NCBI GenBank assembly: GCA_963765145.1
Contig: CAVXVG010000027.1
Location: forward strand, 219,681-283,680
Direction: 5' to 3'
Length of the DNA stretch: 64,000 bases
Source of the DNA: Parachlamydiales bacterium
Lineage (GTDB): Bacteria > Chlamydiota > Chlamydiia > Chlamydiales > JAJFMK01
The notes under the pieces: model-generated
Seen by the model: only the letters and a program-made list of their open reading frames with translations
Told to the model about the DNA's origin: nothing
Databases searched by the model: none
Shown here: in pieces, positions 18,419-20,126 of the stretch
How positions within the stretch are numbered: the first letter of the stretch is position 1
Layout: the number at the start of each line of letters is the position of its first letter
Translations under genes and position numbers: made by a program

Positions 18419-18570
18419 AGGAGTTTAGCACATACTGTAATTGCGCTTCAGAGCTTAGCCGGTAAGAAAATGGGCTGTTCTAGGAGGGTTTTAAAAACCC
18501 CACGGAGTAGTACTAGACTCTCCAGGCTTTGGCTTGGTAGCCTAAGCAAGCAATACAGGAGAACAGCCCA

Positions 18571-19671
18571 ATGAAACATTATATCGGTTTAGACGTATCT
18601 TTGAAAACTACTGCCATCTGCATCATGGCTCAAGATGGTAAGATCATCCGAGAGATGACAGCCGCTACTGACCCTTTAGCTATCGCAACTGCGATCAAGA
18701 CGACCAAGCTCACTATTGAAGCTATAGCAATTGAAGCTGGTGGAACAAGCCGATGGCTTGTTCAAGAACTTCAAGAGCTTGACCTTCCAGCGATATGTAT
18801 CGACTCTCGCAAAATGGCTGCCGCCATCGCAATCAAAGCCAATAAAACAGACAAAAACGATGCGAGGGAAATCGCAAACGCCCTTCGGACTGGCTACTTT
18901 CAAGAGGTCTATCAAAAAAACGATACAAATATGAGCATCAAAAGTCTCTTAAACATCCGACGCAATCTGGTGATACAAAGAACCATGACGAGTAACTGTA
19001 TCCGCGGTACTTTGAGATGTTGTGGAAAGCTTTTTTTAGGGTCTAGTAGTAGTCAAAAGAACTTCATAGAGAAGGTAACAGAGTCGATACAAGATCAACC
19101 TGAAGAGGTCGCAATGGGCATTCGTGCACTTTTAGTAACCTTTTCTCAACTTCACAAACTAGTAGATGAAATAGACAAGAAGATCGAAGACATAGGAAAG
19201 AATGACGAAGTCGTTCAGCTGCTAATGACAGTTCCTGGTGTAGGGATCGTAACTGCAGTGAGCTATAAGGTTGAAATTGGAGACCCAAAAAGATTCACAC
19301 GATCGAGGTCAGTTGGAGCATATGTTGGGATGACTCCAAGGCAGTATAGTTCAGGTGAAACCGAGCATCAGGGGAAAATAACAAAGATTGGATCAAATGA
19401 ACTCAGAGCGCTGCTATCTGATGCCGCCATGAGCATGATGTATCGATGCAAAACATGGAGTAGAGCCAAAGTTTTTGGGCTAAAGATCAATAAGAAGCAT
19501 GGGCATAAAAAAGCTATAGTTGCCCTTGGTCGGAAGCTTGGTGTGATAATGCATCGAATGTGGACAGAAGGTAAACCATTTGAAGCTGGTGAAGTCGAGA
19601 AAAAAGAAATTGATAAAGTAACCAAGCCAAGTCGGAAAGAGAAGAAAAAATCAAAGCAGATGGCTGCTTAA
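18571..19671 (+). CDS. IS110-family recombinase/transposase
   Basis: DEDD RuvC-like motifs GLDVS, AIEAG, KTDKND; C-terminal VPGVG and GMTPRQYSSGE (catalytic Ser); AGGAG RBS. Confidence 0.97.
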   Translation: MKHYIGLDVSLKTTAICIMAQDGKIIREMTAATDPLAIATAIKTTKLTIEAIAIEAGGTSRWLVQELQELDLPAICIDSRKMAAAIAIKANKTDKNDAREIANALRTGYFQEVYQKNDTNMSIKSLLNIRRNLVIQRTMTSNCIRGTLRCCGKLFLGSSSSQKNFIEKVTESIQDQPEEVAMGIRALLVTFSQLHKLVDEIDKKIEDIGKNDEVVQLLMTVPGVGIVTAVSYKVEIGDPKRFTRSRSVGAYVGMTPRQYSSGETEHQGKITKIGSNELRALLSDAAMSMMYRCKTWSRAKVFGLKINKKHGHKKAIVALGRKLGVIMHRMWTEGKPFEAGEVEKKEIDKVTKPSRKEKKKSKQMAA

Positions 19672-19739
19672 GAAAAGTTAAAAAAGTTCTCAAAGAGCGA
19701 AAGAGCAGAGAGAGTAAGAAAAAAGATTCAAATACGAGT

Positions 19740-19905
19740 TCGAAATAAGGTTAAGACGCTTTGGAGTTGACGCTAATAAGACGTCGTGTAGCACATTGTC
19801 TTACCTTGTTTCTTTTGGAAAGTATGTTGGGGCTGAAGATCAGCTAATAAGGCCGAAATCTTCAATAAAAAGGACCCCGGAGAGAACTATGACCGAGTTA
19901 GAATT
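19740..19905 (+). ncRNA. Bridge/seek RNA of the IS110 element (boundaries approximate)
   Basis: Target loop: TTTGGAGT (19760-19767) and TAGCAC (19789-19794) inside stem AAGGTTAAGAC/GTCTTACCTT. Donor loop: AGTATGT (19821-19827) and AGAGAAC (19881-19887) flanking a GGGG..TGAAGAT/ATCTTCA..CCCC hairpin. Confidence 0.85.
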
Positions 19906-20126
19906 TTATTTTTTACGATCAAGCTTTGGAAGCCCATAGAGGAAGTTGTCAATTATCTTGGGGGAAGTATCCCCCAAACCCCCTCGGCTTAGGAAGGGGA
20001 AAGAGAAAAAATCATGCTTGCCTAGAAACGCAATTAGAGAACTCCAAACGCGTTGCGAACGAAAGAGTTTTTGGGCAAGGGCGCGTGAATGGTAAAAAAT
20101 AAGATTTACCATTAAGGTGGGGTTTA

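Follow-up and report, generated by a model that had tools for sequence, protein, structure and literature searches.

The 1,611-bp sequence at positions 18432–20042 of the window, the 64,000-nucleotide stretch of DNA analysed here, is an insertion sequence of the IS110 family and IS1111 type that very probably moves by RNA-guided recombination, its guide being set on one arm of a REPIN-like palindrome. The kind of system is already known, and the element and its clade add a member rather than a new system. Features lie on the forward strand unless stated otherwise. The element is bounded on both sides by the dinucleotide AC, the core, at 18430–18431 at the left junction (placed by a coordinate check and by the ends of relatives) and at 20041–20042 at the right one; these positions, like all others in a preliminary description of this DNA, proved correct. 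As that description had claimed, excision of 18432–20042 rebuilds a repeat arm, and this arm occurs uninterrupted and with zero mismatches 174 times in the genome. The left end (139 bp, 18432–18570) opens with ATACT (18432–18436); the 5′ donor guide is predicted to read this word, which together with the C of the core would also form the −10 box of a circle-junction promoter. The right end (20018–20042) contains a −35-like hexamer, TTGCCT (20018–20023), a sub-terminal inverted repeat, a terminal AGAGA and the AC core. The sub-terminal inverted repeats of the two ends (18435–18449 and 20025–20039) are complementary at 13 of 15 positions; repeats of 7–17 bp are described for the IS1111 group (PMC11208160). 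The element's non-coding DNA comprises the 139 bp of the left end and 371 bp on the right, the long region lying downstream of the gene. The assignment to the IS1111 type rests on the sub-terminal repeats, the downstream non-coding region and the order of the guides; together with the IS110 domains of the protein, these features bear out the IS110/IS1111 identity first proposed.

The recombinase gene (18571–19671) encodes 366 amino acids, contains PF01548 and PF02371, both above cut-off, and scores 239.5 bits against NF033542, the NCBIfam model of IS110 RNA-guided transposases (cut-off 140). Residues D8, E55, D94, D97 and S261 line up in a sequence alignment with the catalytic residues of IS621, whose roles are those described in PMC11208158; across 63 homologues E55, D94, D97 and S261 are invariant and D8 is kept in at least 90%. 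Judged by this alignment, the catalytic residues are intact. The term intact RNA-guided recombinase, used earlier, holds for the sequence; in the contigs of four sequencing runs (depth 2–6), which show presence and not absence, neither the RNA nor a circle joint was seen. None of the runs searched contains half of the element's words, and the contigs of one RNA run cover only 18495–18698 of the element, with four differences.

Five full copies, 99.9–100% identical, are present in the genome assembly (2.68 Mb, 37 contigs, 84.8% complete): three are identical, one has a single substitution and one a one-base frameshift. All five lie between open reading frames at the same AC of one repeat arm, flanked by GGAGTTTAGC plus AC at the left and by TCCAAACGC at the right, and four are in a short doublet form of the repeat. 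Empty arms read through with a single AC, so that nothing beyond the core is duplicated. A sixth, partial copy is a 36-bp right-end remnant (G000 C21:174136–174171, locus L062) with the usual right flank and no gene or left end. The site predicted in the preliminary description is thus where all five full copies and the remnant are found. At the remnant, another palindrome family occupies the place of the missing part of the element. A distant IS110-like match outside the clade (27% over 238 amino acids) lies at G000 C25:31476–32177. The five matches of the RNA model in the genome all fall within the five elements, and no orphan RNA copies were found there or in five other genomes (150 candidates scored per genome). 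In the same-genus genome G304 (one contig, 94%), there is no close homologue and no match of the RNA model.

The fragmented and incomplete assembly, the frameshifted copy and the four sequencing runs, which gave contigs only and no read-level support, would suit a relic that died recently, or an artefact of assembly in which one collapsed repeat was pasted at several places. Such an origin is quite improbable: the five copies differ in flanks and neighbours, two carry private changes and four of the five reading frames are whole. A 180-nt contig of run X1, at depth 2, also joins 18 right-end bases to a flank that is empty in the assembly; its joint is shorter than the 31 bases per side required, and it does no more than hint at a strain carrying a further insertion.

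The target is an arm of an abundant repeat. Its left half lies at 18413–18429, where TAGC (18426–18429) is matched by the 3′ target guide, and its right half at 20043–20060. The arm is the closing end of a composite repeat some 430 bp long (17990–18430), whose partner (left) arm at 18000–18020 on the reverse strand is a variant, 86% complementary to 20037–20057 as an inverted repeat. The composite is built around a second, unrelated palindrome family, represented by a nested, perfect inverted repeat with 45-nt arms at 18175–18320; plant-miRNA matches from Rfam on this palindrome stay below the gathering score and simply pick up the long hairpin. Genome-wide there are 24 long composite forms (112–592 bp) and, at three or fewer mismatches, 302 free arms, against 1.5 in a shuffled genome. 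The arms form 110 inverted pairs, of which 81 are short hairpins of about 85–100 bp, and only eight of the 302 arms lie within open reading frames of at least 150 amino acids, though such frames cover 77% of the genome. As a target, an extragenic arm of about 300 copies would offer many landing sites outside genes, and in a genome that is probably chlamydial an insertion sequence aiming at it would avoid genes. The leads to a host in Chlamydiota are a DUF2709 protein and a TLC ATP/ADP transporter encoded in the window and Atlas hits scoring under 0.9. All five full copies occupy the commonest arm variant (175 of 302), which has a chance of about 7%, and discrimination by the guide among arm variants is therefore unsupported.

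The arm is not confined to the source genome. There are 222 matches in G127, 122 in G383, 17 in G226 and seven in G400, all genomes of another family, 16 in G304, and two or fewer in each of the remaining genomes of the 400 sampled. In G127 (contig C130, locus L195, 1008–2205) a RAYT gene, above cut-off for NF047646, has the arm on both sides in several copies and is likely to mark the cognate REPIN–RAYT locus; a similar RAYT-like gene in G383, at a contig end, has the arm on one side. Across five other genomes, two of 24 Y1 loci (in G127 and G383) are flanked by the arm and one more has a single arm, while in the incomplete assembly of the source genome none of six Y1 loci is flanked. The repeat resembles RAYT-linked REPINs in forming extragenic inverted doublets that make hairpins and in flanking the RAYT gene of G127. 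It differs from them in that neither of the two above-cut-off RAYT genes of the source assembly is flanked by the arm, the nearest arms being 3.5 and 27.6 kb away. From its distribution across genomes and the RAYT flanking, the repeat is therefore REPIN-like, of a mobile type, and older or more widespread than the element. The earlier wording, the host's own REP-like palindrome, was right in its second half and overstated in its first, the arm being a patchily spread, mobile-type palindrome. The idea that the element made the repeat is rejected, as the arm is abundant in G127 and G383 (99% and 81% complete) with no PF02371 match in either. Elsewhere in the source genome, the RAYT at L010 (G000 C5:119131–119676) has a different palindrome upstream, the core motif of which recurs in long composite repeats. 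At L009:901–1869, a 323-aa Y1 transposase-like protein carries a C-terminal DnaA-like stretch.

Downstream of the recombinase gene, a bridge (long seek) RNA of about 200 nt is predicted at 19715–19915, its ends approximate; it folds with an outer stem closing a three-way junction. The 5′ target guide, TTTGGAGT (19760–19767), would pair with the top strand at the core and six right-flank bases, and the 3′ target guide, TAGCAC followed by handshake bases AT (19789–19796), with the bottom strand at the left flank and core. The 5′ donor guide, AGTATGT (19821–19827), complements the left end through AGTAT and the core through its last two bases, and the 3′ donor guide, AGAGAAC followed by handshake bases TA (19881–19889), is identical to the right end plus core. 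The complement to the top strand is located 5′ of the match to the bottom strand. When the bases of the 354-nt downstream region were shuffled 200,000 times, no shuffle contained all four guide words; the product of the single word frequencies, 7 × 10⁻⁷, is a rough figure because the words were chosen post hoc. Rfam has zero family matches in the RNA region. A 9-nt word is repeated in the inner hairpins of the target (19775–19783) and donor (19844–19852) loops and is absent in relatives.

In a sample of 400 other genomes of the phylum, 30 have homologues (E-value of 1e-30 or better), and roughly 60 proteins in databases share 55–68% identity with the recombinase. Among 124 loci examined, 123 matched the protein and 61 had both ends, located by element-internal patterns and a donor-loop anchor. 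After four loci with a different target-loop scaffold (L118, L122, L128 and L140) were dropped, the 57 rows kept comprised 43 distinct guide sets, 17 from genomes (this element included) and 26 from metagenomes. Guides were read by alignment column, and each set was scored against the flanks found at the first of its loci. Left free in the search patterns, the core is AC at both ends in all 57 rows. Neither the 3′ donor guide nor the right end varies across the set; this constancy, like that of the AT at the left-end start, is partly by construction, because the patterns required the AT, the AGAGA of the right end and the AGAGA of the 3′ donor guide. A scan of species genomes with a single protein returned five distant Firmicutes-type loci (26–32%), which were set aside, and viral contigs yielded three loci, none with both ends. 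The right ends of a related element at L021 and L045 (G057) are broken by other sequence, apparently other insertion sequences, in one case inside the target loop, and at L017 the last 22 bp of a related element are tandemly duplicated at the right end. The metagenomic locus L082, loosely grouped with the element, has a near-identical 5′ target guide, a similar target core and a longer inner hairpin.

Across the 43 guide sets, the 5′ target guide matches the right flank at 223 of 292 positions (shuffled, 89 ± 9), the 3′ target guide matches the left flank at 201 of 255 (shuffled, 86 ± 8) and the 5′ donor guide matches the left end at 199 of 215 (shuffled, 148 ± 5); 0 of 5,000 shuffles scored as high for any of the three. 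Per-position matches with the flanks are 0.67–0.91 at right positions 1–6 and 0.67–1.0 at left positions 1–5, with no signal beyond. Shared descent was controlled for by counting independent pairs per position on a tree of the 43 recombinases built by maximum likelihood: right positions 1–4 (median p 0.002–0.016) and left positions 1–4 (median p 0.008–0.031) change together with their guides, right 5–6 and left 5 trend likewise, short of significance, and position 7 on either side and left 6 show no joint change. The target-loop guides covary with the target. The guide/flank test proposed with the preliminary description has thus been passed, tree control included, in 43 elements with different targets, each set of target guides following its own flanks.

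The confinement of the signal to right positions 1–6 and left positions 1–5 means that the recognised site is about 4–5 bases, AC and 6 bases (approximately 12–13 bp). Left positions 6 and 7 match their own flanks in 18 and 6 of 42 relatives, no better than shuffled (0.41 and 0.18), so that the two outermost bases of GTGTAGCAC, given earlier as an 8/9 match to the left flank, belong to the scaffold and not to the guide; the coordinates of the match (19786–19794) stand. At left position 5 the element's guide mismatches its target: the genome has no perfect sites and 177 with that mismatch. That the protein instead recognises the hairpin or cruciform of the repeat, the RNA match being incidental, is most improbable. 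The target does lie within a near-perfect palindrome of 85–100 bp, the doublet form holds four of the five copies, and a preference for repeat doublets has been proposed for REP-targeting IS110 elements (PMC12288879). The copy in the window, however, sits in the 430-bp composite, where the partner arm is a distant variant, and relatives with 42–59% identical proteins have unrelated targets, each matching its own guides base by base. Repeat structure may add to site choice alongside the RNA. Other targets are repetitive too: the target word of the G260 element occurs 252 times in its own genome (control 0), those of the G234 and G057 elements 34 and 42 times (controls 8 and 12), some of which may be their own junctions, and that of the sister in G172 six times, four as inverted pairs; these four were hand-picked and give no rate.

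The RNA scaffold is conserved and structured. Folded on its own, the element's sequence is unremarkable (z −1.48); the consensus fold has 20 pairs, 17 of them with double-sided changes. On the scaffold, 17 of 24 pairs have changed on both sides, with a covariation score of 0.42 against 0.19 when shuffled and at most 0.11 when slid. With a basal helix added to the fold, pairing holds in 91% of cells, against at most 48% when slid; the added helix itself has no double-sided change. The outer stem reaches −11.3 kcal/mol with its own partner against −4.3 otherwise, and the own partner is the best in 25 of 43 elements. Because this stem pairs best with its own partner, the donor guides are placed in a three-way junction, as reported for many IS1111 elements (PMC11208160). 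The two stem-loops of the preliminary description are therefore retained for the target part, an internal loop, and replaced for the donor guides by a multi-branch junction closed by the outer stem. Left to fold freely, the RNA pairs part of the 3′ donor guide; opening the guides by force costs 3 kcal/mol.

The covariation of the donor guides is strong when pooled and rests on few independent changes. The 5′ donor guide tracks the left end at positions 3–5, with three to four independent pairs per position (p 0.125–0.5). This lack of significance, together with the core-facing bases of the 5′ donor guide, which are GT and so pair the full core in only two of 43 elements, would fit a seekRNA variant in which a short processed target-loop RNA suffices, the protein reads the ends through the sub-terminal repeats and the donor-like matches either are not needed or have another role; for ISEc11, an 82-nt target-only seekRNA is reported to be sufficient (PMC11187229). 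The same count corrects the statement that all four guides end on the 2-nt core, which is true of this element and fails for the first donor guide in most relatives. We regard the seekRNA variant as rather unlikely. Where donor guide and left end have both changed, they have done so in the same direction (2, 4 and 1.8 at the three positions) and never in opposite ones; seven of 16 pooled mismatches of the 5′ donor guide are U:G, and three are G:T wobbles; the donor hairpin is 100% paired in the 43 sequences; and the first donor guide of IS621 likewise leaves the second core base unpaired (PMC11208158).

In each loop, the bases immediately beyond the core act as handshake guides would, a concept taken from PMC11208158 and PMC13626964. 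Handshake pairs in the element would number zero before and three after strand exchange, and across the 43 elements exchange raises them in 39, leaves them equal in four and lowers them in none, two of the pairs resting on the AT demanded by the left-end pattern. The first donor-loop handshake base, which is variable, matches in 26 of 43 elements against 16.3 ± 2.6, and on independent pairs the effect is not significant (p 0.25–0.5). Taken over the whole AC-core clade, the balance tips a little towards IS1111-type elements with a full bridge RNA, with a working donor multi-branch loop and handshake and not just target-seeking, whose 43 pairs give the rule of 4–5 bases, AC and 6 bases and whose members have repeatedly been retargeted to the mobile palindromes of their hosts, a parasite of a parasite.

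With the ends joined, TTGCCT, 18 bp and CATACT make up a candidate promoter motif. In 24 of the 43 elements a −35-like hexamer (at least 4/6) is spaced 17 or 18 bp from the −10 of the junction, against at most four of 43 at each other spacing from 14 to 23; a promoter scan of the linear element gives two sites, with 2.1 in shuffles. By analogy with the family, the element would excise as a circle, which would bring the right-end −35 next to the left-end −10 and allow the recombinase and the downstream RNA to be transcribed. The target loop pairs with both strands of approximately TAGC-AC-TCCAAA, as the covariation of relatives and the five of five sites show, and the donor guides would likely pair with the joined ends. 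If the chemistry follows that of IS621, the DEDD/serine recombinase would swap strands at the AC core with no further duplication, and the rise from zero to three handshake pairs upon exchange would favour insertion.

In this the element resembles IS621, for which a DEDD and serine recombinase and target and donor loops with four guides around a 2-nt core are described (PMC11208160 and PMC11208158), together with AU handshake bases in the target loop and three post-exchange handshake pairs (PMC11208158 and PMC13626964), a REP target and a junction promoter. It differs from IS621 in having its RNA downstream rather than upstream of the gene, an AC rather than a CT core, 15-bp sub-terminal repeats and donor guides in a multi-branch junction, and the two proteins are only weakly similar (E 4e-14). 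On the opposite strand, the element's guides follow the IS621 order around a GT core. With the IS1111-group seekRNA elements ISEc11, ISKpn4 and ISPa11 it shares the downstream non-coding region, the sub-terminal inverted repeats and the order of the two target matches (PMC11187229), and ISPa11 also targets REP (PMC11187229); target and host are different, and the account of those elements in PMC11187229 has target matches only, whereas the AC clade has donor-end matches as well. Of the named elements found, ISMno22, an ISfinder name in RefSeq, comes closest (40% identity over 93%); it is grouped with ISAzs32, ISMex9 and ISMpo4 (Supplementary Table 1 and the Durrant tree of PMC11208160). Inspected by eye, ISMno22 also has AGAGA in both right end and 3′ donor guide, and its 5′ donor guide complements its own left end at 5/5 positions, the same donor logic; unlike the element, it has an AG core, an alphaproteobacterial plasmid as its setting, and a different target-loop scaffold and target. 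ISPpu9 and ISPpu10 of Pseudomonas putida are likewise IS110-family elements at a fixed position in REPs, mostly doublets (BIMEs/REPINs); they belong to the IS110 group, unlike the element, and ISPpu9 is described as having an orphan small-RNA module and no junction promoter (PMC12288879), while the source genome has no such orphan. REP targeting has thus already been published for IS621, ISPa11, ISPpu9 and ISPpu10 (PMC11208160, PMC11187229 and PMC12288879). Our search of the freely accessible literature found no paper on the AC-core clade or on chlamydial IS110 bridge RNAs, and the searchable portion of the PMC11208160 supplement contains no chlamydial name, though the clade may be there unnamed.

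Bridge and seekRNA recombinases are under development as tools for genome engineering; in the papers cited here, the well-studied ones combine a CT core with an upstream RNA. The element speaks to the question whether IS1111-type elements use RNA to read their own ends, which PMC11208160 predicts and which, according to PMC11187229, is unnecessary for ISEc11. If the reading of the clade given above is true, it would provide a direct test between the bridge and seekRNA views of IS1111 elements and would supply recombinases with non-CT cores. The element is ready for a plasmid assay, its ends, core, target and RNA fold having already been read, as have 43 naturally reprogrammed guide sets. Beside the insertion, an ABC transporter is encoded by two overlapping reading frames in different frames, a membrane domain (20127–20966) and an ATPase (20945–21886), and looks like a single frameshifted gene (20127–21886).
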